Shown piece by piece: positions 17,489-64,000 of a stretch of 64,000 bases of DNA. The notes beneath the pieces are model-generated. The model saw nothing but the letters and a program-made list of their open reading frames with translations, was not told the origin of the DNA and searched no databases. Made by a program: the position numbers and the translations under genes. This DNA is from Psammoneis japonica (taxonomy: Eukaryota), in assembly GCA_008632985.1 (NCBI GenBank), contig QPGO01000137.1:124001-188000 (forward strand), given 5' to 3'. Every line of letters begins with the position of its first letter. Positions within the stretch are counted from its first letter, which is position 1.

Positions 17489-17566
17489 ACATGGTCATTG
17501 TTTTAGAATCTGCTGCAAACCTCATTGAGCAGCATCAGCAATGTCGATGCAAAACCCAAAACCAAC

Positions 17567-28600: not shown

Positions 28601-31600
28601 CCAGCTCGAGTGGCACAAACATGATGCCATGAATGTGAACTCAATCCCAAGGATCCTGACTTTGAGTCCCTCTGCCCTTGCTTTGGCTTTTTCCCAAAGG
28701 ACACTGTCCGCCGCACTTTTGATTGCATGACACAGTGCACCCGCATGCCAGCCAGCACGCACCTGAAAAAGGCGCGCAAACTGCCCAACCCAGCTCTCAA
28801 TGTCCGCCGACGTGACAACCCGTTGCCACCGACATGGTCCACTCCGACACCCCTGCCATTGACTCTGGTTGCACCAGCGCCCAGCTCTTTGTCGGCATGG
28901 AATCTCTTGTCACTGACGTGCATGACACCAAAACTGACAAAGGACGCATTCCAGCCCTAGGTGGGAGCTCGCAGCACTGACGTGTGACACAAATAATTTT
29001 TGTCATCCGTCGCATGTTTCGCACGCTGTTTTGCGAAGCCCCAGACGTTTTGTGTGACGAATTTATAGAAACAATGATGTGCCAGTTACATTCTTCAATG
29101 TCTGAAGAATGTAACTGGCTGAGTAAAAAATGATGTACTTCAATCATGGGCGAGTTTGTGCGTTCGCAAAATTGCCTCATTTTCTGTTGGCGATCATTGA
29201 CATTTTAATTACCGCACAATTTTAGTGCGGAGCTCGCACGTAGAATTCTACGGGCCCAATGTCACACGGATTCCCACCTGCGTCTGGAACGCGTCAAAGA
29301 ATTCGTCAACACCCTTGAAGACAACATTCGTGATCGTGGTGCCCCGTCCAAGCTCATCAGCGACCGTGCTCAGGTTGAGATCAGCAACAAGGTTCTTGGC
29401 ATCCTTCATGCCCTCTTCATCTCTAGTTGGCAAAGCGAGCCTCACCAACAGCATCAGAATTTTGCTGAACGCCGCTGCCAAACTGTGAAGACCATGGCCA
29501 ACACTGTCATGGATCGCTTTGGGTCCCCGGCTCACACCTGGCTGCTCGCCCTGATGCACGTGTGCTTTGTGCTCAACCACATGGCGTCAGCCAAGCTCCA
29601 CTGGCACACCACCACCAAGGTGCTGTCCGGCTCCACTCCCAACATCGCCCGCTCCTCCGCTTTCAATGGTGGGAACCCAAGTGCCACCACCTGGATGATT
29701 CCAACTGGCCACCCGAATCCCGTGAATTGCATGGCCACTTGGTTGGCATCGCCGAACACGATGGTCACCAAATGACATTCAAGATTCTTTCTGATGACAC
29801 TCAGAAGATTCTCTGCCGTTCCAACATGCGCTCCGCCCATGATCCGTCTGCTCCAAACCTGCTTCTTGATCCTCCTGACAAGAAATCTGCTGAACCTGTC
29901 ATTAAATCCTGCCACGACTCTGAGGATTTGCCAGATTCACCAGATGGGGCGGCGATGAGGATGCCCAAAATGCCAGTCTTTGACCCCGAGGATGTCATGG
30001 GACGCACCTTCCTCATGAAGCCACAAGAGGATGGACAATGCCACAGAGCCTGCATTGTCAAAGCCGTTGAGGACCATGACTGGAAAATTGGAGACAATCC
30101 TGAACTGGTCAAGTTCATTTGCTCCGTCAACAATGACGAATGCAAGGAAGTCCCAGCCTGCAACAACATCATGCACCACATTGAGCAAGAAGATGAGGAC
30201 ACCACCCTCTGGAAGTTCTGATGCATCACATCGCACGAAGGGCCATTGCGACCCCATCATCCCTCTTTGAAAGGCTCAAGCTACAATGTCATGCTTGAAT
30301 GGGAGAATGGAGAGATCACGTCTGAACCCCTTGCCATCATTGCCAAGGATGACCCCCGTCACCTGTGCCATCCACGCGCGTGAGCACGGCCTTCTAGAAA
30401 CCGAAGGATGGAGACATTTTTGCAAGACAGCCCTTTGTCAGAAGAAGCTGTTCCGCATGGCCAACCAAGCCAAGTTGTGCTCCTTTTGCACTGCGCCATG
30501 ACACAAGTGCGGGCATGAAGTGCCATGGGACTGCAAGCATGCCATGGCCCTTGATGAGCACAATGGCAACCGCAAGTGGGGAGACGCAACGGACCTCGAG
30601 ATGACTCAGCTTGATGAGTGCAAGGTCTTCCACGACTGCGGACACCACAAGGATTCCAGTGCTCCATCAGGACACAAGAAGATCCGGGTGCATCTTGTCT
30701 GCGACGTCAAACATGACGGACGGCACAAAGCAAGGCTTGTTGGCGATGGACACCTCACAGACGTGCCCATCGACAGTGTCCATTCCGGAGTGGTGTCTCT
30801 CCATGGCCTGCAAATGATGATCTTCCTCCTGGCTGAGCTCAACGAACTAGAGACCTGGGCCACTGACACTGGGAATGCCTGCCTTGAAGCTACGACCAAG
30901 GAGAAACTGTGCATCGCAGCAGGCCCCGAGTTCGGCGACCTGGAAGGACACATCCTTGTCATCCACAAGGCCTTGTGCGGACTCACTTTGCTGATTGCTT
31001 GCATGCCGAAGGCTTCTTCCCATGCAAAGCCGAACCTGACATCTGGCTGCGTGGGAATGGTGACCACTGCAAATGCGTGGCAGTGCATGTGGACGACCTG
31101 GCCTTCGCCATGAAGGACCCCCAGGCTTTTGCAGACACCCTCATGGAGAAACACAAGTTCAAACTCAAGGGCACTGGACCATTGGAGTTCCATCTTGGCT
31201 GCGACTTCACCCGTGACCCAGACGGTGCCCTGTGTCTTGCCCCCTGCAAGCACATTGAGCGCATGGTTGACAACTGTGCGTGCCTCTTTGGAGAGAAGCC
31301 CCGCACTGATGTGCTTTTACCCCTTGACAAGGGTGACCACCCTGAGCTCAACACCTCCGAATTGCTCAAACCGGAGGGCATCCACCAACTCCAATCCTTG
31401 ATTGGATCCCTGCAATGGGCCGTGTCTCTGGGTCACATTGACATTGCTGCGGCTGTCATGTCCCTGTCTGGCTTCCGTGCAGCACCCCGTCAAGGCCACC
31501 TGGACTGTGCCAAATGCATCTGCGGATTCCTCTCCAAGATGCGTCATGGCACCCTCCAAGTGCGCGCCGAGGAGCCCGACTGTTTGGACCTCCCTGAGCC

Positions 31601-32465
31601 CGTGCATGACTGGGCTCAATCTGTGCATGGGGAGGTAGAAGAGCTGCTCCCACAAGATGCACCCAAGCCACTTGGCAAGTTTGTCACCACCACACACCAT
31701 GTTGATGCAAACTTGTTCCATTGCATGCTCACTGGACACTCTGTCACTGGCATCCTCCATTTCCTCAACAAGTTTCCAGCTGATTGGTTCTCTGACAAAC
31801 AAGCAACAGTCGAGACTGCTGCACATGGATCCGAGTTTGTTGCCGCAAGGACGTGTGTTGAGCAGATCATTGATCTGCGCATCACTTTGCGTCACCTTGG
31901 CATCCCCATTCGTGAAACATGTTGCATGTTCGGGGACAACAAGTCGGTTGTGGACAGTGCCACCATCCTGCACTCCAAGTTGCACAAGCGACATGCCGCC
32001 CTCTCATTCCATCATGTGCTTGAGGCAATTGCCTCCAGTTTCCTCAAGTTTCATTTCATTGAAGGCTCCCACAACCCAGCTGACATCCTCAGCAAGCATT
32101 GGGGTTGCTCACAAGTCTGGAACCTCCTTTGTCCTCCAATGTTTTGGAACTTCGATCCTGAGGCTTTCAACCAATCTGACCTTGAATCCATCACTGTTGA
32201 CCCCTCAAGCAAACTGGGGAGTGACAGGATTTGAACAAGATTTCAGTTTGTCACACACAATTGTGTGCGCTCTTAGTTCCGCGTGCATTGCACGGCATGG
32301 TTTGCTTTCGAGCCACAGGCTCACAAGAACAATGACAGCAGCGCCGACATCACGACACCAGTCTTTCGGCTCCTGTGAAGGTCTCTGCATGGAGACTCAT
32401 CTGCTGTTTAGACAGCAGCAAGGAGTTGTTGTTTTCTTCCAACCAGTCATCTTCATTTTCTGTCA
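25621..32465 (+). mobile_element. Ty1/Copia (CoDi-like) LTR retrotransposon, structurally complete but mutationally dead; LTRs 25621-25864 and 32222-32465
   Basis: 244-bp LTRs with TGACA...TGTCA termini, 5-bp TSD TCCAG (25616-20 / 32466-70) and PPT aaactggggag. Gag from 26677, protease ALVDHGANGG, integrase (FVNTLEDNIRDRGAP), RT (KARLVG, AVHVDDL) and RNase H (HGSEF, GDNKSV, NPADILSK), in Copia order. Confidence 0.95.
28943..29295. mobile_element. 353-bp MITE nested in the Copia integrase
   Basis: Imperfect 24-bp TIRs (gacgcattccagccctaggtggga / tcccacctgcgtctggaacgcgtc) and 4-bp TSD AAAG. Removing it restores ...KTDK-EFVNTLEDN. Confidence 0.88.
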
Positions 32466-35489: not shown

Positions 35490-36020
35490 AAAAAGTTCCA
35501 GCATCCACCATCCAGCACCAAGTGCCTGCAGTCTGGCGCCCACCATCCAGCACCCAGCACACACCATTCGTCAGCTGCCATCTAGCATCAACCATCTTGG
35601 GTTTTGCCACTTGAAAGGAGAGTCACAGTGGCAGTCTGTCTACAAAATGGTTTCTGCACATGTTTTGCACTTTTGCCCATCACCATCACCTCCAGCCCGA
35701 TCCAATTGGAGCTGGGCTGGTCGGGATTGGGCTGGAGGAGGTGGTGGGGGCAGATGACAGTGCAAACCATGCATGGAAACTGTCATGCAGACAGACTGCC
35801 ACTGCGGTTCTTTTTGCAAGTGGTGATGCCCAGTGTGCCATCCACCACCCACCATCCAGCATCTGGTGTCTGCAGCCCACTGCCCACCATCCACCACCCC
35901 GTGGTCCAGCATCCACCACCACCCACCCTCCAGTGCTCAACATCCATCACCCAACACCCATCACCTGCCATCAACCATCTGCCATTCAGCACCTGCCATT
36001 CAGCACCACTCAGCATCCAG
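35490..36020. repeat. Low-complexity imperfect tandem repeats (catccac/ccagcac units) in decayed sequence
   Basis: Repeated ccatccacca/ccagcatcca blocks at 35500-35590 and 35840-36020. Confidence 0.55.
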
Positions 36021-36995
36021 GCTGATCAGGTCTGGCCCAGCGTGGCTTTGTCAGAGACAAAAACAAACCTCCAAAAAAAATGTGTGGACAAATCCAATGT
36101 TGTCTGCCTCTCTTCTGACAATGCTCACAGAGCAAAACAAGAAATTGCTTTGTCCATCATGCTCTGTTTTCTGTTTGACAGTTTTGAAGGGGAGAGGACA
36201 CTGTGGACAACACCTCCGCACCCCAGCTGTGCCCACACAGTCAAAATTGTTGTCTCATTTTTGCTTTGACAGCAGGAGCAAAAAGATTGCTTTGGTGGTC
36301 ATTTTTCCCAGTTGCTGATTCTCAAAAATTTGAAATCAACAACCAAAGACAACACAGTGTGCAGAGATGGCTGCGCGCAATGCAATGAACCTGTGGCGCG
36401 ATGGCAGGAGATGGGGGCCTGTTCCAGCCCCAGGTGATCCGCAACCCATCAAGCAAGATTTTCCATGCAGGTCTCAGCACCAGACAATTTTCCCAGCAGA
36501 GCTTGCATTTTTGGGCTTTTGGTGAACATCAAACATCAAACCCTTTGAACGATGTGACACACATTTGTGACAAGAGCACATGTCTCCAACAACTGGGGCG
36601 TGCATTTCGTCACAGGAACAACAGTGTCAGCTGGCATCCAACATTGTTCTTGTGATGTGTTGATCAATGCTTGCTTCTGCACGCATGTGTGGTTCACACA
36701 AAAAAACACCCCATGCACAACATCAGAGCCACAACACAGCACACCACTGTTGCTGCTCTCCAGCCCCCTCTTTGCCCTTGAGGTTGCAAGGAACCATCTG
36801 TTCCTTTCATTTGAAAGTCATGCCATTGTCACCACAGCACAATTGCAGCTCCGTGCAGTTGCTTTTGTTGTGGACAATGTCATCTTTTCACATTTTCTTG
36901 TGTTTGCAATTTGGCGCTGGTGACAGGGAACAGACGGGTGACAAGAAATGGGCAGCCATGCTGCTGAACTGTGGCACTTGTCCTTTTCTGACTGG

Positions 36996-37446
36996 TGCAA
37001 CACACAGCTGCCAATGAGAGTTGATGCATCACGGTGACGTGTTGCAGCCTTTACATGTCACAAAGGGCGTGACAAAAACAACCTTTTGTCTGCATGCATG
37101 CTGCATTGTGAATTCACAGCGGAGTGGTTCATCGCAACCATTGGGCAGGAGGCCAGGGGTTCGAAACCCTGAGTGGGAGTTGTCTGCAGCAACGTTGATC
37201 ACTGTCGAACGTGCAAAACTCTGTGCAGTTCTGTGTGTTCCTTCACACGTGCCCACACTGTTCCGCCAAAACCGTGCAGTGTCAGCACACGTTCGTCAGT
37301 GAAGAGCCGCATGGACGCGTGATGCATGGGGAGGAGTGCAACATGCAGCCACCAATGAGAGTCAGTGCATCACGGCAATGTGTCACAGCCTTTAAATGTC
37401 ACAAAGGGCGTGACAAAAACAACCTTTTGTCTGCATGCATGCTGCA
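36996..37446 (+). mobile_element. TRIM (miniature LTR element) copy A; 110-bp LTRs 36996-37105 and 37337-37446
   Basis: TG...CA direct repeats, PPT ggggaggag before the 3' LTR, 4-bp TSD CTGG. Confidence 0.88.
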
Positions 37447-38774
37447 CTGGACTTGTTCAAGCCATTTTGTTTGGCTTGAACAAGAAGTTGGAGGCATGTC
37501 TTCATTGTCAGAAGTTGCTGTTGCCTCATTGCATGGGAGTGTTGGGTTTTGAGAATGTTGTGGATGCCACACCTCAATGTCCAGACTTGACAGAGGTCTG
37601 CAAGCACTGAGAGTGGGACAATCTCATGAAAAACAATGGAGACAACACTGTTGCACTGTGTGCAAAGGAGCTGGTTGCTCCAACAAGTGCTGCAGCTGTT
37701 CTGGCATTGCCTCATTCCAGCCAAGAGCATGTCAGCCATGCCACTGAGATGAGCAACGATCATGACTCTTGGGAGGAACTGCTTGCTGAAAGCAAAAGCT
37801 GCATTGCCAAGAGTCATCATGTCAGCGCTGCCAAGTGACAGCCAGGTCAACATTGATGGCTCAGAAAAGTGTGATCCTCCAATGTCAGAACCAGAGATCC
37901 AAAAAAGACTGCACGACCATGTTTTGGCAAGATCATGTTTGACAGTTGCTGGACAACTGAGTCCAGGTTGAGAGTGAAGAACAAACTTAAAATGTTGGCA
38001 TTGAAGGAATTACACGTCAAGCTGCATTGCAACACAAAGTGCGCCATTTCATCTGCTGAATGGCTTTGGCATGAAACACACACAACCGCCAGTCTGATGG
38101 ATCAGAAGTTGTTGCTCAAGAGGAAGCAGGTGGACAAAACACAGTGTTGCACACCAGGTGTCAAATGTCACAAGCAGAAGAAGTCCAACGGTGGGTGCAA
38201 CAACAGCAATTGTGTTTTCCATGACAAGCATTGTGAGAGGCACCAGGATCTTGTCTGGCATTCCCCAGCATCTCCAGGAGTGCACCATCCTCTGGCCCTT
38301 GGAACATGGTTTAGATGTGCTCCCTTGCAACCCCATTTGCCAGCCTTGACAGTTGTCATGGGTGGGCCAAACTTGCTCCACACCATGTCTTCCTGTGCTT
38401 TGCAGGACAGCTCATCCCATTGCAGCAGATGGAAACCCTCATCAAATTCACAAGACAGTGCAGCACAGCCCTTTGTGACAACTTCATCTGCCATTTCCTC
38501 AGTCAAAATGTCCAACTCACAGATTTGTGAACCAGCTGCACCTCGTCAACATCACTCTCAGTTGTTTGAGCTGCCTGACAAACTGTCCAATCATTCAGTC
38601 CCTCAAAGATGGGCCACAGTTTGCAAGCTCAGTTGCCAGCTGCATGCCAAGGCTGCTCGGCAGGGCTGACATTGTTCTTTGCCCAAGGTCATCTTGAGCT
38701 GATCCAGGAGGCAGTCTTCACAAGCACAAGGAGTGCATTGAATGGCAACCCAACCAACAGCAGGAAAAAGAGGC

Positions 38775-39400
38775 TCAAATTGAAAATGGCGCGTGGCACC
38801 AATGCCACAATGCACAGTGCCACTGATGCAGTTGCGCCAATCCCAACAACTTGACTCTGGCTGCTGAAGAGCCAAGACCGTCATTTGGATCTTGCAGATG
38901 ACACACCCTTTCTTTCAACTTTAAAAGGGATTCCCTCACAGCATGTTTCCTGTTGTCATCTGCACCTTTGGCATTCTCTTCCCTGAGAAGAATTCCAGAA
39001 CATTCTTTTGAGTGCCTGTTCTCAACTGCAACATTGTTGTCATTCACAACCAAAGCACCAGCTCCAATTTTTTGCAGACTGCATTTCTCAATGCAGCACA
39101 AGTGATTTGACACAGGCTCCAACTCCATCAACCTCTCCTTTGCCATGTCCGGGTGCTCCAACCACCATCAAATCAAAAAAATTGCAACGTGCACAAAATT
39201 TGTGACAAATTCCAAGTCCCCGCACAATTGCCGTGCAGCAAGTCAAGAAACAACCCTTGTCACCCTCAAAGATCATCTTTGCAATGCAGGCAACATCCTT
39301 TGAAAAAAGATGTGATGCACAAGAAAGGAGAAATCATCATTTTCAAAGGAAACTGCCTTCTTGTGACTGCAACTCATGCCAATGCATCACAAAATTTCAA
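38775..39400 (-). mobile_element. Decayed DDE/DDD transposase remnant (HGKG..DG.G motif, Sola2-like)
   Basis: ORF 39088..39276 contains APGHGKGEVDGVGA. The superfamily assignment is from motif recall only. Confidence 0.45.
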
Positions 39401-40007
39401 CAAAAATGACCTTTTTGGACAACTGCACTGCCTTTCCTCACAAACAAAACATCACATGGCTCTTTGCAATGACAATGACCCGGTTGGTGTGTTGTTTCAT
39501 GTTGCTTGCAGACCTGCAGTTGTCAAGCAACAAAACAGCAGCATTTGCTCATTTGAAGCAAAAAATGAAGTGCTCTGAGACCTCCCATGTGCTCTCATTG
39601 TGAAAGAATGTGAGCTGTTTGTCTTCACAAATCAATTTGTGACTCACAAATTTTGCATCTCAGCGGCCAATGGCACACGGTCAAAGACAACTTTCTTGCA
39701 TTTGTGGGCAAACACAGACAACAAGTGCAGCGCCAAAGTGCATCAATGCTGTTTGGCGCAACCATCTGTGTGATCCCAAATCACAAGCCACACCTGACAC
39801 AGTCCATGGTTCTCCAAGGGGGGGCGGCTGTTGCTCAATTTGGGAGGGGGCAGGTTGTTGTCTTGGAAAGGACAACCCTTCACGATGACACTTTTTGTTT
39901 TTGCTGTTGTCAGTTTGTGACTTGTGTTGATGGCCAACTCCAGTTTGCCTCCTCTTCTTTGTCATGATGCACTGCAATTTGAGCAAAAAATGTGCACTGA
40001 GAGGGCT

Positions 40008-40454
40008 TGCAATGCACAGCCACTGATGAGAGTTAATGCATCACGGCGACGTGTTGCAGCCTTTAAATGTCACAAAGGGCATGACAAAAATGACCTTTTG
40101 TCTGCATGCATGCTGCGTTGTGAATTCACAGCGGAGTGGTTCATCGCAACCATCAGGCAGGAGGCCAGGGGTTCGAAACCCTGAGTGGGAGTTGTCTGCA
40201 GCAACGTTGATCACTGTCGAACACGCAAAACTCTGTGCAGTTCTGTGTGTTCCTTCATGCGTGCCCACACTGTTCCGCCAAAACCGTGCAGTGTCAGTGC
40301 ACGTTGGCAAAGAGCCGCATGGACGCGTGACACATGGGGAGGAGTGCAACACACAGCCACCAACAAGAGTCAATGCATCACGGCGACGTGTTGCAGCCTT
40401 TAAATGTCACAAAGGGCATGACAAAAACAACCTTTTGTCTGTGTGCATGCTGCA
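40008..40454 (+). mobile_element. TRIM copy B
   Basis: Same LTR-internal-PPT-LTR structure as copy A; 4-bp TSD GGCT (40004-07 / 40455-58). Confidence 0.88.
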
Positions 40455-41795
40455 GGCTGGTGGATGAGATGGATGAGAGGTTGAGAAGGACATCATTTTG
40501 TTGTGCATTCAACCAATTTAACTGTCTGGTGTCTGCAGAAACAGGGCATGTTCAGACACAGTTGAGTTGAAGCAGACCAAAAACATGAGCTCAAAAAATG
40601 AAAACGTGAGCGGGCAGAGAGCATTTTTCACGTGGGTTGCTGTGCTGGCCAGAAGTTGCATTTGGCACAATAAACTCACTCAAGCAACCTTGATTGTTTG
40701 AAAAAATTGAAAGGTGAGTGTGCATGAAAAATGCAAGTTTTATTTGCACTCACCCTTTGAATTGGAAAAAAATTGAAATTGAAAGAGCTCATCTGGCCCA
40801 AATGCAAAAATGGGCCAGAAAGCTGGAGCAGGCCTTTTTTGACTTGCGTGCTGCAGCAACATTGGATGACGGTCAGGCCACACCTTTGTGTGGAGCAGAG
40901 CAACATGATGACCAGCTTTCATTGGAGAGGCGCATCCAAGTGTGGTGGCACACAAGAACCCAGGGGCTCTGCAGTGCCTGCGCGAGTGTGAGCTGAGCTC
41001 TCCGGGGGTCTGCGGGAGCAACGGCGGCAAGCAAGTTCGAGCCCAATTTTCTGCTCTGTTTTTTTTTAAAATGAGCAAGTGAAAGATGATCATTTCAAGT
41101 TTCAACTTGTGCACTGGAGGTGAGCAGAATTTTGTCTTGGACCAAAGATTGGCTTTGAGCTCAGAGCCAGTGGTGCGGCACTGGCAAAACGCCAGCTGAA
41201 CTCTCTCTGCAGCTTCAAAAACACAAAGTGTTGCACAAGCTGACACCGCATCATTGCCTGGTCCAAGAATCACAATGGTGCACCCTACCCAGAGAGAGCT
41301 GGGCTCCGCCCAAGCTGCTTGAAACTGCTGTGCCTCTGCGCGCAGCTGCCACTGTCAAGGGAGGGCCCCACACACACGCACACCGCATCCGCCATGGTTC
41401 CGAGTCTTGCCGCGCATGCGCCAGTCGTGAAACCGGCGGTTGAAGTTGGGCACGCGCACTTTTTCTTCAACCAAACTTGCCTCCGAGATGTGTGTAGAAT
41501 TCTACGTATGAGTAGGGCGAATGCGTTTGATCCGCGGATAAGATACGCGTGAAAGCGGCGATAATGTTCTGGGATCTTGTGTGTCTCGGTCCCATAAAAC
41601 CGACAACCTGCCTTTTGATTGCATCCATCTGTGTTGTTCTTTTCTGTAAAGAAAGAGGTATGTATGATTATGTGTATGATTGTACAGCTGAAAATCAATT
41701 CCAAAAGAGATTTGATGCGAAAGCAAATCACCGCGCTCATCATGTTTTTTCTGAATTGTTGCTTTTCTTGGGCAGGTTCACTTGTGTTTGACATC

Positions 41796-50601: not shown

Positions 50602-51577
50602 GTTGGAGTGCTCTCCAAATGGCATTACAGTACAGTAAATTCAAACTTTATATGTAAACATACGTTTTTTAATACATAAACAGGTTTTTGAATTTTATAC
50701 CTCTTTTAAAACTGAATATAAACACTTAGTTTGAAGTCGATTTTCAAATTTGCCGGGAGAGTTGGTCATGACACTGTGTCAACTAAACCACAAAACGGCA
50801 CACGCCAAAAGCAAGAGTGCAAACCACCGCACGCACTTCCTCAAGTGAAATGATGTCCATGATGAATGGCCAGCCCATCAATCTGTCATCATCTTCCCTT
50901 GAGAAAAAATGCTCTCATTTGATTCCCACATGGAAGAGGGCAATGACGCACAGCAGCAGTGCTTCTTGCACAAAGATGGCCTCATTGGCAACACTGGTGG
51001 CAGTGTGGCATTGATGCAGCTGAAGGGGGTGTTGGCACTCTGGAGTGCAGGTCTTTGTCAGTGCACGAGAAATGCAAAAGGACAAAAGCTCGGTGAGTTG
51101 GGGATTCCATGCTGCTGTGCCACTTGGGCTGCACCTCCATTGCGTGACACAGTGATGCCACAAGAGATTTGAAGAAAACAAATTTGAAATTTTGAATTTT
51201 TGGAAAAGAAGGTGCACGCCAATGTGTCAAGAGGGTGCTGCCATGCAAGTGAGCCAAAAAGGCCATCAACCACCATTGCAACAGCCGCTGATTGGACTCC
51301 ACGCTGAGGAGGTTCATCTGGCAAAGCAGCACACATGCATCCACCAAAAGAGAGAAAAAGAAGGTGGCCTGAAATCAATTGCTTCCTTGTCCTTGACCAG
51401 GTCAAGTTTGTGCAATTTTGCTGCAATCTTCCACATTTTATCCTCCGTGTGTCTTGAGGCAGTGAGAGGAGCAACATGACCGCCAGCAGGAAAATGAAGA
51501 GCCAAAGGGGCAGCACTGGCATCCTCTGACCCTTCTTGAAGATGAACAAACCACTGGACAACATGGCACATTTGCGC

Positions 51578-51975
51578 CATGCTCAAAAAGAATGAGTGCA
51601 AATGAAAGCAGAGCAAATCATGAAAAGCAGACATTGTGGCTGAGACTGGATTTTGCACTGCGATTTTGGGATTCTCACTTGACAACAGATTGTCTGGCTG
51701 TGATCGACATGCTCAAAAAGAATGAGTGCAAATGAAAGCAGAGCAAATCATGAAAAGTGGACATTGTGGCTGAGACTGGATTTTGCACTGTGATTTTGGG
51801 ATTCTCGCTTGACAACAGATTGCCCGGGTGTGACCGACATTGACATCTTATGTGTCAACTTTGTCTGTTGATTGCATTTGCAATTTTTGACTTCCAATCA
51901 ACTCTGTGTGATTGATCTTGTCTGTCAATTGCATTTGCAATTTTGGACTTCCAATCAACTCTGTGTGATCGATCT
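51578..51975. repeat. Tandem duplications: ~130-bp unit x2 (51578-51840) and ~57-bp unit x2 (51860-51975)
   Basis: catgctcaaaaagaatgagtgcaaatgaaagcagagc occurs twice; gcatttgcaatttt.gacttccaatcaactctgtgtg occurs twice. Confidence 0.8.
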
Positions 51976-52689
51976 GACCATCATGTGCATCCACAATTGC
52001 CGTGCGATTGACACACACCCAACAAAATGCACAATTGTGAACATGCACAATTTTGTCCACTTGACAATGCACACTGCATTTACCTCCCCAATGGAGACCA
52101 GGACAATTAAAAAATGGGTGACAGTGTGCCAAGTGCATGGAAAATCAAAAAAGACACAAAACATCAAAAGATTTGAGCATCAAGTGCTTGTGAGAAAGGC
52201 AGTTGACAGGTTGTCAGGGACAACAAGAACACATGTGACACATTTACATTGAAGGATTGTGCACAAAATTAGCCTGGAACCCACCAAAGGCAAGCCATGT
52301 GTCACATGCTTGTTCCATGGTGGTGCTCAAGTTGACTTTGATGCCATGCTTGTGCTTGCTCAATGGCATAGACAACAAGAGCTGGGGCGGATCTGGCATG
52401 GACAACTTTCAGATCAAAGCAGCTGACACCGAGAGCAAATGAAATGTGTCTGATTTTTTAAGTTGGTGGTGCAGTGTGCTGCGCATTCAGCAATGCGGCA
52501 ATGACCAGATTGTCTGTCAAGTGAGATTGACTCCATTGTCTGTCAAGCAATCACATTTGACAATGCTGTTCTGTCCACTGCCATTCTACGTTGTCTTTGG
52601 AAATTTTTTGCCAGTTTGAAATTGACTGCTTCTTGAGTGTCTGTTGTGCTCCAGCACTTCTGGCAATCTGTCTTTTTGGTTAAGCCAGA

Positions 52690-54300
52690 GAAGCCTTGGC
52701 ACACCATGCAATGATGCACACAATGCCAACAATTGCTTCAATTGGCAAACCATTGCAACGGCCTTCAAAGGTGCCATTGACAAGTCCTTCCACGGTCCTG
52801 AGTGCAATGACAAGCTCTGCTCCATCTGTTGCTCCTCCTTCAACCAAACAAAGGTGGCACACCTTTGCTCACTCCAGCTGGTGCTGTGCTGTCAACTGCC
52901 CCACATCCATGGCACCCAGAGCACCATTTCCAAGCAACATGTCATCTGCAACTCCATTGGCTGAACCCAGTGGTGTGCTGTCTTTGAAGCCCTCCATTGT
53001 GGCCTCTGCAACTCCATCAGGATTTCCAACCTTAGAGCAAAGTGATGTGCCATCAACAACTCCATCAGATGTGCCAAGCAACATGCCATCTCAAAACCGC
53101 CAACTGCTGACACTTCAACAACACCTTCAATGGTTCCAAGTGTGGTCCCCAGCAATCTTCCATCTCAGCAAAGCTGTCATTTCAACCCAGTGATGCACCA
53201 TCCACATCACCTTCAAGAGGTCCAAGTGTGCTCCCCAGTGATGCACCATCTGTGGTGCCATCATCTGCCCCAAGTGGTGAGCCATCACAGCAGCCTTCAA
53301 TGGCACCATCCACAAGTCCTTCCACCATCCTGAGTGCAATGCCGACCTCTGTTCCATCTGCAGCTCCCTTGTCCAAACTGAGCAGCATGCCTTCACTTGC
53401 TCCATCCAATGCACCATCAACTTTTGCTGTCCATGGCACCCAGTGTGTTTCCAAGCAACATGCCATCAACAGCTCCGTTGGCTAAACCTGGTGGTGCACC
53501 ATCCTTGAGGCCATCCTCAGTGGACAGTGTGGACTCCACAACTCCTTCAGATTTCCAAGCTTGGGGTGGAGTGATGTGCCATTGACAGTTTCGTCCAATG
53601 TGCTGAGCAACATGCCATCAGAAACCCCTCCAAGGATTCCAAGTGTGGTTCGTGGTCAAGCACCATCAACAAATCCATCATTTAAACCAAGTGATGCACC
53701 ATCCCCAACACCTTCAGTGGTTCCATCAAATGCACCTTTTGCATTTCCAAGTGTGCACCCCAGTGAAGAATCATCTGCAATGCCGTTGTCTGCCCCCAGG
53801 CACCCAGCAAAACACCATCAATGAAACCATCTTTAGAAGCAAGCAGTGCATCTCCATTTGCACCCTCCTCCTCCACACCAAGCACCATTGTGATTGACAT
53901 GACATTGACTCACCATCATCTGAACCAAGTGACATGCCAGCAACTGCCCCTTTGTCAGCTCTGAGCGGATCTCCTGGCATTGTCCATCAATGAACAGCTC
54001 CTTCAGGTGAGCCAAGTGGCAAGCCATCTTTGCTGCCATCCAAAGTGCCAAGCTTGCAACCAAGCAATGTGCCATCATCAACTCCATCACACAAACCAAG
54101 TGATGTGCACCTCTTCAAAAAATCTGTCCTCTGTTCCAAGTGGGGCGCTGCCGTTGACATGTTGGAACCGCCAAGTGTGGCCCCAAATCCATGCTCACAC
54201 TTTGAACCAAGCAATGTGCCATTGGTTCTTTCTCTCAAAATTGCAAGTGTTGACACAGACTCTTTGGAAATGCAGTCTTCTGAACCATGGTGACAACTGA
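52690..54300 (+). pseudogene. Decayed PS-x-x-PS (mucin/adhesin-like) repeat protein gene with internal duplication
   Basis: Fragments PSDAPSVVPSSAPSGEPSQQPSMAPS and PSTNPSFKPSDAPSPTPS are scattered over shifting frames. 52755-53050 resembles 53295-53600. Confidence 0.65.
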
Positions 54301-55576
54301 AAGAAGACAATCAGGTGTCAGTTGATCAAGTGCAGACATGCAGCTGCTTGCGTGCAACAAGGCACATGGTTGCCACTTGTTCCTCTGCCTCTTCCTGATG
54401 GCACATTTCCAAGATAAGCCAGTTGGCATCAACATGCAACAAATGAGTCATCTCCACCACCCACCACACCATGCACCACAGCTCTGTGCCACAAAATGGT
54501 GCACAAGTCAAAAAAAACAATGCTCCTTCTTTCTTGAGAACATGACCAGTGAGCACATGCTTTTTGTCAAACTGCTGGATTCACCATCCTCTCACACTTG
54601 CACCCATTCTCCCATTTGATGTGTTTGCAGCAGCACTTTTTAGAGTGTAACTCAAGAAGCAGGAGGCTGGAAAGGGCTTCTGGGCACATTCCTTTGTGGT
54701 GCACTAGACACATGAGGTCCAGTGCTTTTTCCTTGTCAACTCCGGCCCTGCAAGAAAGGAACACAGGAAATTCATCGCCACATCCATGAGAAAGCAGTTC
54801 AGTGGATGCAGGAGATTGCAGCTCACAAAAGTGTGCTGTCTCGTGCCATCATCACCTTGCCTTTGTTGTTCCTTGCAGCCATGACAAATGCATTGGGCTG
54901 TCACAGCACAGTGGCATGTGTTCAGCAAAACAACTTGTCTTTTGTGAAGTAATTCATTTGACATTCGTCATCCAACTCCATTGTTCTGTCCACACAAAAC
55001 ACAAAATGTGGTGGCTTCTGGACCCCACCTCATTTGAGGCAGCCAAACAATGATCTCTCGGTGGCATGGGAGCTCTCCACATTCAACACCAAGCTTCCGA
55101 CAAGTCTTGCACACATCTGTGACTGGAAATCTCCAATCACTTTCTTTTGGCGCTGCTCCAAGAGCCACCTTCTGTTCAGAGCCCCGCCAAGATTCCCAGT
55201 GGTTTCTTCTCTGAGTCGATTGCAAACTGCCCTCAGGCATTTGAGCATGGTCCTGCCAGGTCCACTTACATCCTCATCCACATGATCGTCAGGGTGTTGT
55301 TGCGGTGAAGCCAAAAGTTCGTGTGTGCAAGACTAAAGGTATAATAAAAGCATTCACGGTTGCCTCTTTGTGACCTTGTTTCTGTTCAAGATAAAAGTGA
55401 ATCTTCCTGTGACACAAGATGAACCAATCGGCATCAAAAGGTGTTTTGGGAGACATTCCAAAGTGCAGCAGTGTCACTCCTCGCATTCACGTTTACCGAG
55501 AGACTTGGCCATGTCACAAGGCCGCATGTATAAAGCCACATTGTGAGGATTTCTCTTACAGTATAGTCGTGTTAAA

Positions 55577-58797: not shown

Positions 58798-61700
58798 TGT
58801 CAAACCAAGGTCACCACATGCCTTGTGCTCCTCACAGGAGGCTAACCTCCTGTCGTTTCGGATTGTGGAGTTTCAGAGTCTGCAGGTGGGCGAGCAGCAT
58901 TGGTTTTGCTGCTGTTCCAATCAATCATCTTTGCATTGCTGCAGCGATCCAAGCAAGCACTGTTGGGTTGGGATGTGGCTCCATGTCCATGCTGTGACCA
59001 GGCCAATCAGAGGTGCACAGCAACATGAAACCACTGCCTTTCCAAGAAAGTGAGCTTGGTGCCACAAAGGTCAGAAGTGCAAGCTCAAGCTGAGGTTGAT
59101 GTCAAAACAAAGAAGTGAGTAGACCAAAGAGAGGGAGAGCCTGAGTGTCAGTGAGCGCTGGCGAGCCCTCTCAAATGGCTGCGTCAATCTAACATCCAAA
59201 ATTAACACTGCATGTCAGAAGCGTGCGAGTGAGTTGCTGCACTCTTCCCTTCCATGATCCGAAAGAACTAGAGGATCATGCAAAGGGTTAAAACCAGGGA
59301 CCAAAACCCAAAGAAATTGCAACAGCAGGAGGAAACCCAGGTGTTGGGAAGAAAATGCAGCATGCATGCAGACAAAAGGTTGTTTTTGTCATGCCCTTTG
59401 TGACATTTAAAGGCTGCAACACGCCGCCGTGATGCATTGACTCTTGTCAGTGGCTGCGTGTTGCACTCCTCCCCATGCATCACGCGTCCACACGGCTCTT
59501 TGCCAAAGTGTGCTGACACTGCACGGTTTTGGTGGAACAGTGTGGGTGCGTGCGAAGGAACATGCAGAACTGCACAGAGTTTTGCGTGTTCGACAGTGAT
59601 CAACGTTGCTGCAGACAACTCCCACTCAGGGTTTCGAACCCCTGGCCTCCTGCCTGATGGTTGCGATGAACCACTCCGCTGTGAATTCATGGCGCAGCAT
59701 GCACGCAGACAAAAGGTTGTTTTTGTCACGCCCTTTGTGACATTTAAAGGCTGTGACACGTCGCTGTGATGTGTTGACTCTTGTTGGCAGCTGTGTGTTG
59801 CAAAAACCCCCTGATCAACCACGAAAGGGAATCAGGCGCCGAATGTTGAGGCGCTCAACCACATGAGGAGCTCGATGAAGCGAGAGCGTGCCATTCACAT
59901 GCACTTGAACAATGGGACAAGGGCCATGAGCACGAGGCTCGAGTCTGGACGGGTCAACCGACTTGATTGGAACTTGATCACCCACTTGACAATCGCAGGA
60001 TCTTCTCTTGGCATTGGCTCTTCGCAAATTGTCATTGATCAGCGTCTGGCGATGGCCTTGAATCGTCAACAAGTCTGCCAGCACAGGGACACCTGGGATC
60101 ATGTCACGTCCAAACACCATGGCACCTGGTGAAGTCTGTAAAGAACGGGAAACAGCACAGCGAGTTGCATGCATTGCAGTTGCCAAAGCATGATCCACGA
60201 GGCCAGCTGCACCCTGAAGGTTTTGAGGTGGATTGGAAGCAATGAGCGTGCGCAGTGCATTGCCGACAGTCTGGTGCATTCGTTCGCAAACAGCATTGGC
60301 TTGAGGGTTGTATGAAGCAGTCGGCACATCATCAATTCTGGCTTGTTGCAACAGCATCTGAAAATCGCACCCGGTGAACTCGCCGCCGTTGTCGTGGATG
60401 CATCGATTCGGTCTGGGACAGCGTGCAAGCCAGCAGTTTTCGAATTGGTTGGCAACATGTCGGGCAGTTTTATTTTCAATTCTCACCAGTTCAACAAGAT
60501 TGGAGACAGGATCAACACAGGTCAATGCCCGAAACTCAATCTCTCAATTCGGCACTTTGATTTTCCACGGGCCAATGAGGTCAACCGCCACTTCTGACCA
60601 GAGAGCCAATGGAGCTTCTCGCTCGGGTGACTCTCCACAGCCAGGACCTAAAGATTTGTTACATTGGCAATCAGCACAAGAGCACTCATCACACATGCGA
60701 CGCAACCCAGGATGACAACAATGAGCCTGGATCATTTCATGCATGCGCTGGCTTCCGGCATGGCCAAGGACGAGATGACACCACCGCAATGTGTCGGGCA
60801 TGAGCGCAGTCGGCAAACAGATTTTCCACTGTCCTGGAGGATCATTTGGTTGCATGCGATGACACACAAGCAGTCGATCATTCACACATTCTACGAGGAA
60901 ACGATCAGGGTGAGCAATGCGCATCTGGTTCAACTGTTGGTCCTCGAACTGGTGCTCTTGAATGCATTGTAACGTCATCGGATTCTGCATCTCTTGCATC
61001 GTAGGGTGGTTCAAGAAAGAATCGAACAGTTCCGGCTCATCCACAAAGAAAGAGAAGAAGTGTGAGTGGCCTTCATTTTCAATGTTGCAACAACACTTGA
61101 ATCGGCACGCGCCGAGCTCCAAGTCCTCATCGCGGAAATCCTTGAATTCGGATGGTTCCTCACTCGGCACCAACTTCGAATCGAGCAGAGCAAAATCAAC
61201 AACAGTTCCTTTGCCCGGAGCCAAGCTCTTCCCTTTAGAGGGAGGATCCACACGAGGTGAGTGAGAAAAACAATCAGCCAAGACATTCAATCGGCCTTCA
61301 ATGTGATGAAATTGAGGGGCAAAGTCTTCCAGAAAGAGTCGCCAACGAAGCACACGTTGTGAATTCAAGGTGCGAAAGGTGAGGTTCTTGTGGTCAGTGA
61401 ATGCATGCAAGTCGCCACCAAGGAGCATCAATCGGCATTCTCGGAAGCACATGACAATGGCCAACAGCTCTTTTTCGATCGTCGAACAGTTTTGTTGCGC
61501 CGCATTGAGCTTTCGAGACCAGCACGCAATGGGCTTTCCATCCTGTTCAATCACTGTGCCCATCTGGCAATCACTTGCATCGGTGTAGACATGGAAGGGT
61601 TTGTCATGATTCGGATGTGCCATTGATGTTTCAGCCGCTGGGACTGCTTTCATCTCATTGAACGCCACCTGACTTTCCGCTGTCCATGTCCACGTGCCTT

Positions 61701-64000
61701 TACCTGTGAGATCTGTTGAGGGTTTCAACAGGTGAGAACGCCAAGGCCACACATTGCGACAGTGCGTTGCAGCGCCAAGGAACGAACGAAGCTGCTTGAT
61801 GTTTTCCGGAGGTTGCATTCGCAGGACAGCTTCCACCTTTTTCTTCCACGGATGAATTCCAGTCGGAGTTAGCCAATGCCCAAGGAAATCCGTTTCCTGC
61901 ACACACCATTCGCATTTCAAAGGATTTACTTTGAACCCAGCTTCTTCCAAGCATTGTAAGAGTTCATCAAGACGGTCAAGGTGAATGTCAAAGTTGTCAT
62001 CAAATTGAGCAAGATCATCAATGTGCGCGTCAACGTCCAAGTTGTGCACAGTTTTCTCAATCAAACATTGCGCAACATCTGGAGCTGGCTTCAGACCCAT
62101 TGCCAAATGGCAGCATCGGCACTTTCCAAAGGGTGTCACGATTGTCGTCAAATCCTTGGAGTCATCATCCAATTCGAATGCATGGCACATCATTGAGAGG
62201 TCCAATTTGGTCAAAAACTTGCACCCGGCTCTCTTCTGAAGCACATCTTGAATGATCGGCAAAGGACAAACCTTGCGCTTGAGGGCTTTGTTGAGTTCCC
62301 AAAAATTGCTGAGCCACCGCACTCGACCATCCTTCTTTGGCCGAATGAAAGTGCCAGCAGCCCATTCCGAAGTTCCGGCTTCTTCAAGAACGCCAAGAGC
62401 CACCAAGTGATCCAGTTCTCGTTTGAAAGTTTCAACATCATTGTGCGGCACTGCATGCACTCGAGAATGACAAGGAACAGCGTTGGGATCAATGTCAAGG
62501 TGAACTTTTTCGCCAGCATGCTTGCCGAGAGTGCCATCAAAAAGAGCAGTGTGTTTTTCCAATGCGAGGCGTAATTTTTCTTGTTGTTCGGCAGTGAGAT
62601 GCTTCTGAGCCGACGCTGCTTCAGAAGGGGACGTCTCCTCACACTTTGCATCGAGGATGTGGCTGTCCCATGCATCATCATCGTCAGCTGGCTCATCAGT
62701 CAAGTCGTCAAGCCACTGCTGGATGCCAATCCGATGGTTTCTTGGTTTCATTGCAATGCTTGAATCGAGCCACTTGACAGTTCCGTGTTCAAAATCTAAC
62801 GTGATGCCTGCTCTCGCCAAGAAGTCCTGTCCAAGGATCACATTGCACTGGCAAGGTGAGTCAAACACATGCGCATGCATGCCATCAACACGTTTGGTCT
62901 TGTCAAATTCAGGGAGCACCACATCCCGCAGTCAAACGTAATGAGCAGATTTGAATTCTCCCGCTGACGTCCGAAACTTCGCAACAATTGGTCCTGTGTC
63001 CTCCAATGCTGGTGCTGCTCCAACTGGCAACACCCGAGCATGAATCATTGAATGGGTTCCACCAGAGCTGAGTGACACCCGCATCACGTGCTTGCTTTCC
63101 TTATCTTGAATGAATCGCGCCGCGAACAAGGTTGCAGGGACCACGTTCAAAGGTTTGGTTGGTTTTGTTTTTGGGGTTGGCACAGCGCACTCAAGTCCCA
63201 CATCGTCTTCGTCATTCACAGTGTGATTTTCGAAATCGTCATCATCAAACAAATCAGCAGCATGCACATGACAATCATCAATGCAGTCAGCACAATCATC
63301 AAACACACAGGAATCAGGAGTGACACACTCGGACGACAGCTCTTCAAGCTCATTGGGTCAGCATCAACCGCGTCCCGAGAAGCGACCACCAGGTCGAAAA
63401 CTTCCCACTCCACCTCGATGCTCACGAGGCCCTCCCACAGAATCAAGATGATGGCTTTCAGCAGACCAATCATCAGGAGGAGCCATTCTGGCCAGATTGC
63501 CGTAACCGCCACCATCTGCATTGGTTTGGGTGTCGTTTTGATGTTGCATGCAGGAGCCACCATCTTCATGATGCTCGCCGCCATTGCCACCAGAGTTGCA
63601 GTTTCCTTGACCGCCACAATTTCCTTGGCCACCACCACGACCTTGACAGCCACGGCCTTGCCAACCATGACCTTGATTTCCACCATGACCATGACCTCCA
63701 CCGCGACCGCCACCTCGACCACCACGGCCACCACATCCACGACCGCCACGATCAGTTCTTGGACAGCAGTTGTTGGAGTCAGGATTCATGACGCAATCTT
63801 TCCACTTGTGATTGTGAGTGTGCAACGGACATTGGGTTTCTGGGTCAATGCGATTGCCTTTCTTCTTGTTCGAGCCGCCTTTAGACTGTCCATCTTTGCG
63901 CTTTTTCGACGTCTTCTTGTTCCCATCTGCAAACGATTTCTCCGTGCTCATGTGCGTGACTGTTTCCGCCAGTGTGTCATTTCCAATCGTGCGTCCTGCT
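58798..64000 (-). mobile_element. Ty3/Gypsy LTR retrotransposon (5' part outside the window); 3' LTR ~58798-59241
   Basis: Gag with CPLH..H.W..C and RGG tract (63364-63951), then protease, RT (LDLSM, TPFG, HIDD), RNase H (VYTDAS, EKELLA, TDHKNL) and integrase (HAG..R, DLIGP, DNGGEF, NPQAN..ER). PPT ggaagggaagag lies next to the LTR at 59241. The distal LTR end is approximate. Confidence 0.93.
59356..59802 (-). mobile_element. TRIM copy C, nested in the Gypsy 3' UTR
   Basis: Reverse complement of copies A and B; 4-bp TSD AAAA. Confidence 0.88.

Follow-up and report, generated by a model that had tools for sequence, protein, structure and literature searches.

The closest described system is that of the rhizarian alga Bigelowiella natans, in whose mutation-accumulation lines 231 of 302 single-nucleotide mutations lay inside two integrated viral regions, and 230 of these 231 were A>G or T>C changes, all at TpA (Mettrop et al., bioRxiv 10.64898/2026.01.13.699255). 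According to the same preprint, TpA is converted there to TpG or CpA almost exclusively and only in foreign or mobile DNA, long-term depletion of TpA is accompanied by a gain of CpA and TpG, and reverse transcriptase is over-represented among ORFs poor in TpA; an ADAT2/TadA-like adenine deaminase was proposed, without demonstration, as the agent. Since the words CpG, 5mC, diatom and retrotransposon have no occurrence in its main text, that text does not say which of TpA loss and CpG decay comes first, nor does it contain the rule for the 3′ neighbour or the independence of individual copies. As far as this published text goes, the signature has previously been reported only in this one unrelated alga.

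Other known systems share some features with the one described here. Fungal RIP is likewise a mutational attack on repeated and mobile DNA that destroys coding capacity and leaves a dinucleotide signature with sharp block borders; in its published descriptions, however, it runs in the opposite direction (CpA to TpA, with TpA enriched), whereas here TpA is destroyed and CpA and TpG are enriched. APOBEC3 acting on retroviral cDNA and ADAR acting on repeat RNA in animals are also deaminases that attack retroelements with a neighbour-base preference, but APOBEC alters C, not A, and the substrate of ADAR is double-stranded RNA; here both strands are hit about equally. Decay of 5-methylcytosine at CpG in methylated transposons fits the slower of the two losses described below but is unable to yield the loss of TpA.

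We analysed a 64-kb stretch of DNA (the window) from a different, diatom-like host. It resembles B. natans in the conversion of TpA to TpG or CpA almost alone, in the confinement of this change to mobile DNA and in the long-term depletion of TpA with gain of CpA and TpG. It differs in that new mutations were caught in B. natans, whereas the process is known here from its footprint alone, and in that the targets here are LTR retrotransposons near saturation (TA o/e 0.02–0.12, against 0.45 in the giant-virus region of B. natans; bioRxiv 10.64898/2026.01.13.699255). A kinesin encoded in the window is closest to diatom proteins (54–57% identity), and among the matches listed none exceeded 62%; the assignment of the host to a lineage is based on this one kinesin and on the element's relatives.

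Table 1 Coordinates of the features discussed, in positions of the window
Feature	Position	Strand	Description
Block that has lost both TpA and CpG	7950..14300		TA o/e 0.02, CG o/e 0.14; CA and TG o/e 1.8–1.9
Block that has lost both	16800..20000		TA o/e 0.06, CG o/e 0.14
Complete Ty1/Copia element	25621..32465	+	244-nt LTRs, TCCAG target-site duplication
Insertion within Copia coding sequence	28942..29295	+	354 bp, not hypermutated; 13 TpA
Block that has lost both, hosts two Gypsy solo LTRs	35520..41000		TA o/e 0.02–0.08, CG o/e 0.17–0.28
Solo LTR, focal Gypsy family	36996..37446	+	CTGG on both flanks; TA o/e 0.08, CG o/e 0.63
Second solo LTR, focal Gypsy family	40008..40454	+	GGCT on both flanks; TA o/e 0.12, CG o/e 0.68
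Block that has lost both	51000..55000		TA o/e 0.07, CG o/e 0.17; internal tandem repeats
3′ LTR, focal Gypsy	59356..59803	-	448 nt, 5′-TG...CA-3′ in element orientation; aligns with copies 36996–37446 and 40008–40454
Integrase core ORF	59815..60525	-	236 aa, 1 Tyr; TGA stop between this ORF and pol ORF
pol ORF	60544..62922	-	792 aa; RT, RNase H, integrase zinc-binding domain
ORF in protease position, between gag and RT	62932..63306	-	124 aa
gag-like Gly/Arg-rich ORF	63364..64000	-	continues past window end

Comparison of dinucleotide o/e over 12 repeat blocks and 7 background stretches of the window revealed that TpA was scarce in every repeat block (TA o/e 0.01–0.12) while CpG varied widely (CG o/e 0.13–0.77), in agreement with the prediction of an earlier note on this DNA that in such a comparison TpA should fall first. 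The background stretches ranged from 0.44 to 0.65 in TA o/e, and the background value of 0.57 resembled that of intact Gypsy relatives; host ORFs had a normal Tyr content (2.1–4.1%). TpA loss is confined to repeats and mobile DNA, and host genes are spared. None of the 12 repeat blocks had an intermediate TpA level, so the loss looks rapid and saturating rather than like a slow decay. CpA was enriched to 1.6–1.9 in the repeat blocks where TpA had fallen to o/e 0.02–0.12, values that led us to reject fungal RIP, which would leave TpA enriched. In the blocks that had lost both dinucleotides, TA and CG dropped by 0.53 and 0.74 o/e units and CA and TG gained 0.68 and 0.65, with AT, AA and TT unchanged. 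One of these, described in the same note as an older block at 7950–14000 without either dinucleotide, proved to be so over 7950–14300 (Table 1), with 8 TpA and 51 CpG in 6350 bp. No credible Pfam match was obtained for 49 ORFs from these blocks, the block at 7950–14300 giving only chance-level rows at E<=0.5, and the two identifiable hit elements, Gypsy and Copia, are both retroelements. Similarity searches fail on the old repeats, which can still be compared once their letters are reduced to purines and pyrimidines. The window ORFs scanned included no deaminase gene.

The focal element is a Ty3/Gypsy retrotransposon copy on the minus strand, whose 3′ LTR with TG...CA ends lies inside the window, whose interior runs to position 64000 and beyond, and whose 5′ LTR lies past the window end. 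Its pol ORF carries both Ty3-type RT and RNase H domains in Pfam (RVT_1, 2.4e-11, 44.2 bits against a cut-off of 29.6; RT_RNaseH, 3e-25; RT_RNaseH_2, 3.4e-24) and had 859 relatives at E<=0.001 (best identity 59%). Integrase_H2C2 at pol residues 704–757 (1e-4, 22.8 bits) and rve in the integrase core ORF (8.8e-5, 23.1 bits) scored below their curated cut-offs of 25.5 and 32.6, as expected of a mutated copy; their location downstream of RT–RNase H, Integrase_H2C2 first and rve in the next ORF, confirms the Gypsy order, unlike that of Copia. The Pfam scan returned no family for the ORF in the protease position or for the gag-like ORF. Only 20 TpA were present in the 4.2 kb of 59815–64000, and the interior (59804–64000) had a TA o/e of 0.08 with a CG o/e of 0.77 and 206 CpG, which bears out the claim that CpG is still frequent in this element. 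Relative to the family level the interior retained ~16% of TpA and ~88% of CpG, so that after correction for composition CpG is far from being as low as TpA, and the outcome that the earlier note had named as a refutation did not occur. The 3′ LTR contained two TpA, both within TTTAAA, at a CG o/e of 0.69; LTRs are depleted of TpA as strongly as coding parts, and the whole element is affected.

The translated pol ORF contains exactly one Tyr, as had been counted before, and the altered motifs quoted in the earlier note (HIDD, GKCRC, NCST, AATHCR and KPSTD) are all present in it. Comparison with 40 relatives upheld most of the ancestral residues given there: Tyr in Y-I-D-D in 37, Tyr in N-Y-S-T and Leu in P-L-T in all 40, and, in A-V-T-Y-Y-R, Val in 38 and the two Tyr in 32 and 40. 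The ancestral reading GKYRY was only partly right: in G-K-x-x-Y the last Tyr is found in 40/40, but the third residue is Phe in only 21. Judged by these residues, the copy is dead despite its open pol frame, as its catalytic YxDD reads HIDD and a single Tyr is left. In the 21 columns where the 40 relatives conserve Tyr, one Tyr was kept and 12 had become Cys and 8 His. Over 394 conserved columns there were 74 changes, of which 20 were Tyr to Cys or His, four Val to Ala (3 GCA, 1 GCG) and four Leu to Ser (all TCA), with Trp (14/14) and Gln (11/11) unchanged. All 120 Gypsy relatives listed have 2.6–4.4% Tyr, and in five intact relatives on metagenome contigs TA o/e is 0.45–0.71 and CG o/e 0.71–0.97; since the Tyr content and TA o/e of relatives are normal, the low values of the focal element are due neither to chance nor to composition.

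The Copia element, with a TA o/e of 0.11 and a CG o/e of 0.58, is a second, independent case of TpA loss. Its RVT_2 matches in Pfam were below cut-off, its relatives are 58–67% identical to it, and the 120 relatives listed all have normal Tyr content. Among 40 Tyr columns, 19 had become Cys, 17 His and 2 another residue, and 2 were kept. In both elements far more CpG than TpA survived: 14/21 CGN codons at conserved Arg columns against 1/21 TpA in Gypsy (Fisher p=5e-5), with TGN or CAN at the other 7, and 27/50 against 2/40 in Copia (p=3e-7), with 23/50 changed to TGN or CAN. On these numbers 5-methylcytosine decay was rejected as the sole cause, and the proposal that TpA loss runs ahead of CpG deamination and is not its by-product was supported: the loss of TpA precedes the decay of CpG and does not depend on it. 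As for age, both solo LTRs of the focal Gypsy family, richer in CpG, are nested within the block at 35520–41000, which is poor in TpA and CpG; that CpG-poor blocks are older is indicated by nesting at this one place and assumed elsewhere, where differing methylation levels could also vary CpG loss.

The two Copia LTRs differ at 20 sites, of which 10 are CpG decay, one is TA/TG and one a CA/TG split. CpG decay thus went on in place. In these LTRs nearly the whole excess lies in CA (31, o/e about 2) rather than in TG (17–20, o/e 1.2), and because of this strong local strand bias the pair has little power as a test for in-place TpA loss. The borders of the insertion within the Copia coding sequence were set by tblastn segments of a relative that end at 28941 and restart at 29296 at the same residue, and CG o/e is about 1 in the interval 29001–29500, which overlaps it; since this insertion is untouched, the mutator was not continuously active at the locus.

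Together, the 3′ LTR of the focal Gypsy and the two solo LTRs of its family retained 7/69 TpA cells and 57/75 CpG cells, and 34 of their 40 variable sites were CA/TG/CG/TA alternatives. Twenty sites were split between CA and TG and one among CA, TA and TG; at these 21 TpA-derived split sites, pairs of copies agreed at 8, 8 and 4, with no pair above chance. The two solo LTRs each have their own 4-bp target-site duplication. TpA hits are independent in each insertion.

Surviving TpA followed a flank rule. By the base on the 3′ side, the hit rate was TAT > TAC > TAG >> TAA, A-flanked sites surviving most; survival was 0.56 for TTAA, 0.28 for CTAA, 0.16 for GTAA, 0.14 for CTAG, 0.08 for CTAC, 0.06 for ATAA and <=0.02 for the other four contexts. 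A four-parameter, two-strand model fitted the ten context classes (chi-square 5.3, 6 df), with the same result whether the baseline standing in for the ancestral elements was the gene-rich background or the five intact relatives. The hit rate would accordingly be set by whichever base follows the adenine (T > C > G >> A), each strand being counted separately. ADAR favours G and disfavours U as 3′ neighbour, the reverse of this order. Editing of the ADAR type was rejected: ADAR favours a 5′ U (bioRxiv 10.64898/2026.01.13.699255) and a 5′ T is likewise required here, but the preference T > C > G >> A at the 3′ position and the hits on both strands do not fit it.

Two explanations without a mutator of this kind are already contradicted. 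That TpA poverty is a composition of the family or genome, for instance through selection against TA stop codons or unstable mRNA motifs, might draw on the low background TA o/e of 0.57 and on frames that stay open when TAA and TAG are removed; it is hardly credible given that invariant and catalytic Tyr are replaced (HIDD for YxDD), that Tyr content is normal in each of the 120 Gypsy and 120 Copia relatives listed, that intact relatives reach TA o/e of 0.45–0.71, that non-coding LTRs are depleted equally, and that one and the same LTR carries CA in some copies where others carry TG. Coupling of TpA loss to CpG decay, as a by-product of cytosine methylation with its repair (over-corrected T:G mismatches, for instance), would account for both losses ending as CA/TG within the same blocks, but it is very improbable: TpA survival is 5% where that of CpG is 54–76%, the Copia LTR pair has CpG decay without matching TpA change, and CG is not regenerated, so the T of TpG is not converted.

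The other alternatives concern target and substrate. An oxygenase of the TET/JBP type could oxidise the T of TpA in silenced DNA to 5-hydroxymethyl- or 5-formyl-uracil, a base that mispairs with G and so yields T>C. In some protists modification of thymine favours TpA, the symmetric footprint makes A>G indistinguishable from T>C on the opposite strand, and the flank rule reads equally well as a preference for the 5′ neighbour of T (A > G > C >> T). Nothing in the window is evidence for it, however, and we know of no modified thymine of this kind in diatom-like hosts, so we regard it as quite improbable; the preprint's authors prefer adenine deamination, by argument only (bioRxiv 10.64898/2026.01.13.699255). 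Editing before integration, in which an adenine deaminase acts during reverse transcription on retrotransposon RNA and/or minus-strand cDNA or an RNA:DNA hybrid, much as APOBEC3 enzymes attack cytosine in retroviruses, so that insertions arrive TpA-free and only CpG decays in the chromosome, agrees with several observations: the Gypsy LTR insertions make independent CA/TG choices, no block is intermediate in TpA, the later insertion in Copia is untouched, both identifiable hit elements are retroelements, and the Copia LTR pair has fewer splits than in-place loss predicts, an argument weakened by the strand bias of those LTRs. We nevertheless consider it unlikely. The sense strand has both directions similarly (12 Cys to 8 His; 19 to 17), so two substrates would have to be edited about equally; direct measurements of the signature in the preprint's text are only on integrated double-stranded DNA viruses; and stretches devoid of TpA but normal in CpG continue past the CpG-poor blocks at 7 of 10 borders defined by hand, which is unexpected if cDNA alone is edited, though such stretches could also be the ends of elements.

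Read from its letters, the Gypsy copy is very probably a dead insertion hit by a TpA-specific T:A to C:G mutator aimed at mobile or repeated DNA, with slower CpG decay after. T:A to C:G change at TpA would leave TpG in one strand and CpA in its partner; the mutator would strike each insertion independently, fast and near saturation, and leave neighbouring genes alone. Afterwards, and much more slowly, CpG in the element would become TpG or CpA, presumably by ordinary deamination of methylated cytosine. Old blocks would be ~1.9-fold richer in CA and TG because two separate processes converge on the same products. From this footprint we infer that the likeliest chemistry would be adenine deamination in 5′-TA-3′ by a TadA/ADAT-like polynucleotide adenine deaminase, with A rather than T as the target base, and that methylation would have a role in the CpG loss. 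The window itself shows the specificity for TpA, its confinement to repeats, the independence of the copies and the precedence over CpG loss. As substrate, integrated chromosomal DNA is probable, in preference to the cDNA or RNA of reverse transcription. More tentatively, a TpA-directed DNA adenine deaminase defence may exist in a second, unrelated supergroup (a diatom-like stramenopile, against the rhizarian B. natans) as a one-off chromosomal kill of each new insertion that extends some hundreds of bases into flanking DNA, and the order TAT > TAC > TAG >> TAA may mirror the U33-A34 anticodon-loop context of TadA/ADAT.

If that is true, TpA defence would be a counterpart of fungal RIP, either ancient or evolved more than once, opposite in chemistry, upstream of cytosine methylation and independent from it. 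Three concrete handles on the process go beyond the published text of the preprint: its timing against CpG decay, the flank rule and the independent hits in each copy. Dating of transposons by total divergence or by CpG loss alone would mislead, and dead repeats give long, Tyr-free, stop-poor 'ORFs' in six frames that pollute gene predictions and protein databases. If the process is as general as the window suggests, it would also supply natural enzymes that turn A:T to G:C in DNA at a defined motif, and TpA hypermutation would be a wider genome defence of protists rather than the peculiarity of one chlorarachniophyte.

The loss of TpA from the Ty3/Gypsy element at the right end of the window is real and strong. 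The earlier note had reported a single Tyr in the 792-aa pol ORF and the loss of TpA with CpG largely kept, and all of its numbers hold: the ORF contains 1 Tyr in 792 residues, 20 TpA remain in 59815–64000, and the observed/expected ratio (o/e) in 59804–64000 is 0.08 for TA and 0.77 for CG. The five altered motifs that it quoted are all present, and the ancestral residues it inferred mostly match those of relatives (Y of YIDD in 37/40, Y of NYST in 40/40, the two Y of AVTYYR in 32/40 and 40/40, L of PLT in 40/40); for the middle residue of GKYRY the inference is in doubt, F occurring in 21/40 relatives.

This TpA poverty is a matter of mutation, not composition. Tyr content was 2.6–4.4% in every one of the 120 Gypsy relatives listed, and a metagenome scan revealed five intact relatives on metagenome contigs (0/5 from the focal family or the host), all normal in composition (TA o/e 0.45–0.71; CG o/e 0.71–0.97). 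Over 394 conserved alignment columns (at least 70% agreement among the best 40 relatives), the window protein departs from the consensus at 74. Only one of the 21 conserved Tyr columns was kept, with 12 changed to Cys (TGY) and 8 to His (CAY); Val became Ala at 4 conserved columns (3 GCA, 1 GCG) and Leu became Ser at 4 (TCA), and conserved Trp (14/14) and Gln (11/11) were unchanged.

Comparison of TpA and CpG in the same coding sequence revealed very different survival. The 22 conserved Arg columns of Gypsy pol consist of 14 CGN, 1 AGA and 7 TGG/TGC/CAG/CAY; composition-corrected survival was 14/21 for CpG versus 1/21 for TpA (Fisher p=5e-5), which bears out the earlier claim that TpA loss runs ahead of CpG loss and is not its by-product. 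A complete Ty1/Copia element (244-nt LTRs, TCCAG duplication; relatives 58–67% identical) provided a second, independent case. Its 40 Tyr columns comprise 2 kept, 19 Cys, 17 His and 2 other, and its 61 Arg columns comprise 27 CGN, 4 AGR, 23 CpG-type changes and 7 other, with survival of 2/40 for TpA versus 27/50 for CpG (p=3e-7). Three LTR copies of the Gypsy family (two solo LTRs plus that of the focal element) presented CA, TG, CG or TA alternatives at 34 of 40 variable sites (20 CA-versus-TG splits, 1 CA/TA/TG, 1 CA/CG/TG and 12 CG versus CA or TG), and only 6 differences were of other kinds. Counted as copy-by-site cells, CpG was kept in 57/75 and TpA in 7/69. The CA/TG splits indicate that conversion of one and the same ancestral TpA took place on one strand in some copies and on the other strand in others; each copy was mutated independently, with pairwise agreement at 21 sites (8, 8 and 4) as independent hits predict.

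When the comparison of TpA with CpG suggested by the earlier note was run across the blocks of the window, TA o/e was 0.01–0.12 in all 12 repeat blocks, and CG o/e ranged from 0.13 to 0.77; seven background stretches gave 0.44–0.65 and 0.76–0.94, respectively. The block that had been described as older and as having lost both dinucleotides (7950–14300) does show a TA o/e of 0.02 and a CG o/e of 0.14. In the blocks poor in both, TA and CG were jointly down by 1.27 o/e units and CA+TG up by 1.33, with AT, AA and TT unchanged. No block of intermediate TpA level was seen among the 12, which fits fast, saturating TpA loss rather than slow decay. A Pfam search (E≤0.5) for the identity of the both-lost blocks, using 53 ORFs (49 from the blocks, 4 from Copia), returned only chance-level rows and a low-complexity repeat.

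The order of events can be read from nested sequences. The two solo LTRs, each with its own 4-bp duplication (CTGG; GGCT), are richer in CpG than the block in which they sit, and the CpG-poor DNA is therefore older at that place. The possibility that these two LTRs (37 kb and 40 kb) are the pair of one element was rejected, since their own duplications and the much lower CpG between them indicate independent solo LTRs. The Copia LTR pair shows 20 differences, including 10 CG versus TG/CA, 1 TA versus TG and 1 CA/TG split; the CpG-type differences indicate that CpG decay continued in the chromosome once TpA loss was already essentially complete. The reading that TpA falls before CpG, decoupled from 5mC decay, is supported; note that "older" is an assumption for CpG-poor blocks outside the nested case, and that unequal methylation could also give unequal CpG loss. 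In the proposed mechanism, TpA-specific A:T>G:C hypermutation of mobile DNA would strike an element first, and ordinary, slower CpG decay would come after it.

The 118 TpA left in 31.5 kb of repeat blocks lie in non-random contexts. Survival, calculated relative to a background that stands in for the ancestral elements, was 0.56 for TTAA, 0.28 for CTAA/TTAG, 0.16 for GTAA/TTAC, 0.14 for CTAG, 0.08 for CTAC/GTAG, 0.06 for ATAA/TTAT, and at most 0.02 for ATAG, GTAC, ATAC and ATAT. A two-strand model, in which 5'-TA-N-3' is mutated independently on each strand at a rate dependent on N, fits the ten context classes (chi-square 5.3, 6 df) with relative rates of 2.9 for T, 1.9 for C, 1.0 for G and 0.26 for A; this order was unchanged in each block class and with the five intact relatives as baseline. 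The rates are equally readable as a rule on the 5' neighbour of T, so that they are compatible with attack on A or on T.

The hypermutation is specific to TpA, restricted to repeats, independent between copies and earlier than CpG loss; its enzyme, attacked base and substrate are what we infer. The mutations may strike integrated DNA: strand use is near equal (Cys:His 12:8 in Gypsy and 19:17 in Copia), LTRs and interior are affected evenly, and the signature in the published precedent was measured on integrated DNA (bioRxiv 10.64898/2026.01.13.699255). TpA may alternatively be edited before integration, on reverse-transcription intermediates, a timing to which the lack of intermediate-TpA blocks, an unmutated 354-bp insertion within Copia and the few TpA-type differences between the Copia LTRs point. 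The last is a weak test, since the CA excess in these LTRs is one-sided (31 CA, o/e about 2, versus 17–20 TG, o/e 1.2) and concordant mutations are thus expected under either timing; the Copia pair, the only true LTR pair in the window, was therefore dropped as evidence for pre-integration editing. The unmutated insertion indicates that the mutator has been inactive at the Copia locus since the insertion arrived.

The 354-bp insertion, a multiple of 3 in length, lies in Copia coding sequence, contains 13 TpA (a normal number) and normal CpG, and carries a 10-nt direct repeat (GGAGCTCGCA) near both ends; it may have arrived later as a small mobile insertion, or be something like an intron. The strand bias of products flips along Copia, with CA well above TG in its LTRs and 5' end (25621–26500 and 31500–32465), and TG above CA in its interior (27000–31500). 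The same contrast was observed in the focal Gypsy element, between the LTR (CA 16 versus TG 5, sense orientation) and the interior (Cys 12 versus His 8).

Stretches of 160–560 bp that are nearly free of TpA, rich in CA/TG and near normal in CpG were found beside CpG-poor blocks. Among ten margins, which were drawn by hand, 7 exceeded the 90th percentile of the background control, and a CA+TG excess was present. These margins may be ends of elements that lack methylation, or may reflect spread of the mutator into neighbouring DNA; the margin left of Copia is probably half of an older block that was split when Copia inserted. They were not counted as evidence of spreading, nor for either timing of the mutations, given this alternative on the Copia side, the messy automatic segmentation and the TpA-free gaps (120–306 bp) that gene regions also contain.

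Coordinates of the mobile elements and TpA-free margins in the window
Feature	Position	Strand
3' part of Ty3/Gypsy LTR retrotransposon	59356–64000	minus
LTR, 448 nt, TG...CA ends	59356–59803	minus
Integrase-core ORF	59815–60525	minus
792-aa ORF: reverse transcriptase, RNase H, integrase zinc-binding domain	60544–62922	minus
Short ORF in protease position	beyond 792-aa ORF	minus
Gly/Arg-rich gag-like ORF, continues past window end	beyond protease-position ORF	minus
Solo LTR of Gypsy family	36996–37446	
Solo LTR of Gypsy family	40008–40454	
Complete Ty1/Copia element	25621–32465	
Insertion in Copia	28942–29295	
Near TpA-free margin	16537–16799	
Near TpA-free margin	20065–20423	
Near TpA-free margin	33481–33698	
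Near TpA-free margin	40931–41494	
Near TpA-free margin	50785–50950	
Near TpA-free margin	55051–55266	

The 5' LTR of the focal Gypsy element lies outside the window. The copy is dead, since its catalytic YxDD reads HIDD. TpA loss removes TAA and TAG and leaves TGA as the sole stop, so that the long open frame is a by-product; across the window, 157 stretches run for at least 110 codons without a stop, and many of these overlap on both strands over repeat blocks. The family is multi-copy in the public run containing the same stretch, as judged from contigs, whose depth does not equal copy number, and many diverged copies were found among the contigs of two public sequencing runs (X1 and X2), with 642 transitions and 177 transversions relative to the focal copy. 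Among the matches listed, its sole named relative is from the diatom Pseudictyota dubia. The LTR carries a 109-nt segment repeated at both of its ends, and summed contig depth was far higher for the LTR bin than for the interior. It also contains, at 59520–59690, an invariant stretch similar to the T-arm of a tRNA (GGTTCGAAACC), which recurs in the corresponding part of the 37.1-kb and 40.2-kb copies; this stretch is not a gene, since ARAGORN called no tRNA in the whole window.

Host genes in the window are long ORFs without interruption. A 653-aa kinesin ORF had no match above 62% identity among those listed, and its best named relatives among these were diatoms (Seminavis, Nitzschia, Cylindrotheca and a Bacillariaceae genome; 54–57%). 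Judged by these few genes, the host looks diatom-like. A lactonase beta-propeller domain is encoded by each of three tandem paralogous ORFs, which lie ~1.3 kb apart in 42250–46100 and are normal in composition. A direct repeat of ~220 nt (~80% identical, TpA normal) at 7726–7948 and 20354–20570 encloses 12.6 kb in which a TylF-type methyltransferase gene (15066–16298) is intact alongside two hypermutated blocks. The segment 14303–14498, at the right-hand edge of one hypermutated block, forms a 196-nt palindrome that looks perfect in purine/pyrimidine space; the single N of the window, 250 nt to its left at 14046, may mark an assembly join. In the region 50001–50934, TpA is normal or raised (o/e as high as 0.9), and summed contig depth in X1 is about 15 times that of neighbouring single-copy genes; the region was found in X2 too, and appears to be a non-hypermutated repeat, or sequence common to another organism in the sample.

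A precedent exists in mutation-accumulation lines of Bigelowiella natans, in which 231 of 302 new single-nucleotide mutations fell in two integrated viral regions, where nearly all were A>G or T>C and all were at TpA; 324 TpA-poor predicted genes were enriched for reverse transcriptase and DDE domains, and the authors proposed an ADAT2-like adenine deaminase (bioRxiv 10.64898/2026.01.13.699255). CpG, 5mC, diatoms and retrotransposons are all absent from the main text of that preprint (bioRxiv 10.64898/2026.01.13.699255). It was the sole match in a full-text literature search for the TpA signature, and no report of it from diatoms or from other algae was found in literature judged from titles and abstract openings. 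The present host belongs to a different eukaryotic lineage from B. natans, and the targets here are retrotransposons. We read the focal element as one victim of TpA hypermutation of this kind; new beyond the published main text are the flank rule, the independence of each copy and the timing of TpA loss with respect to CpG decay.
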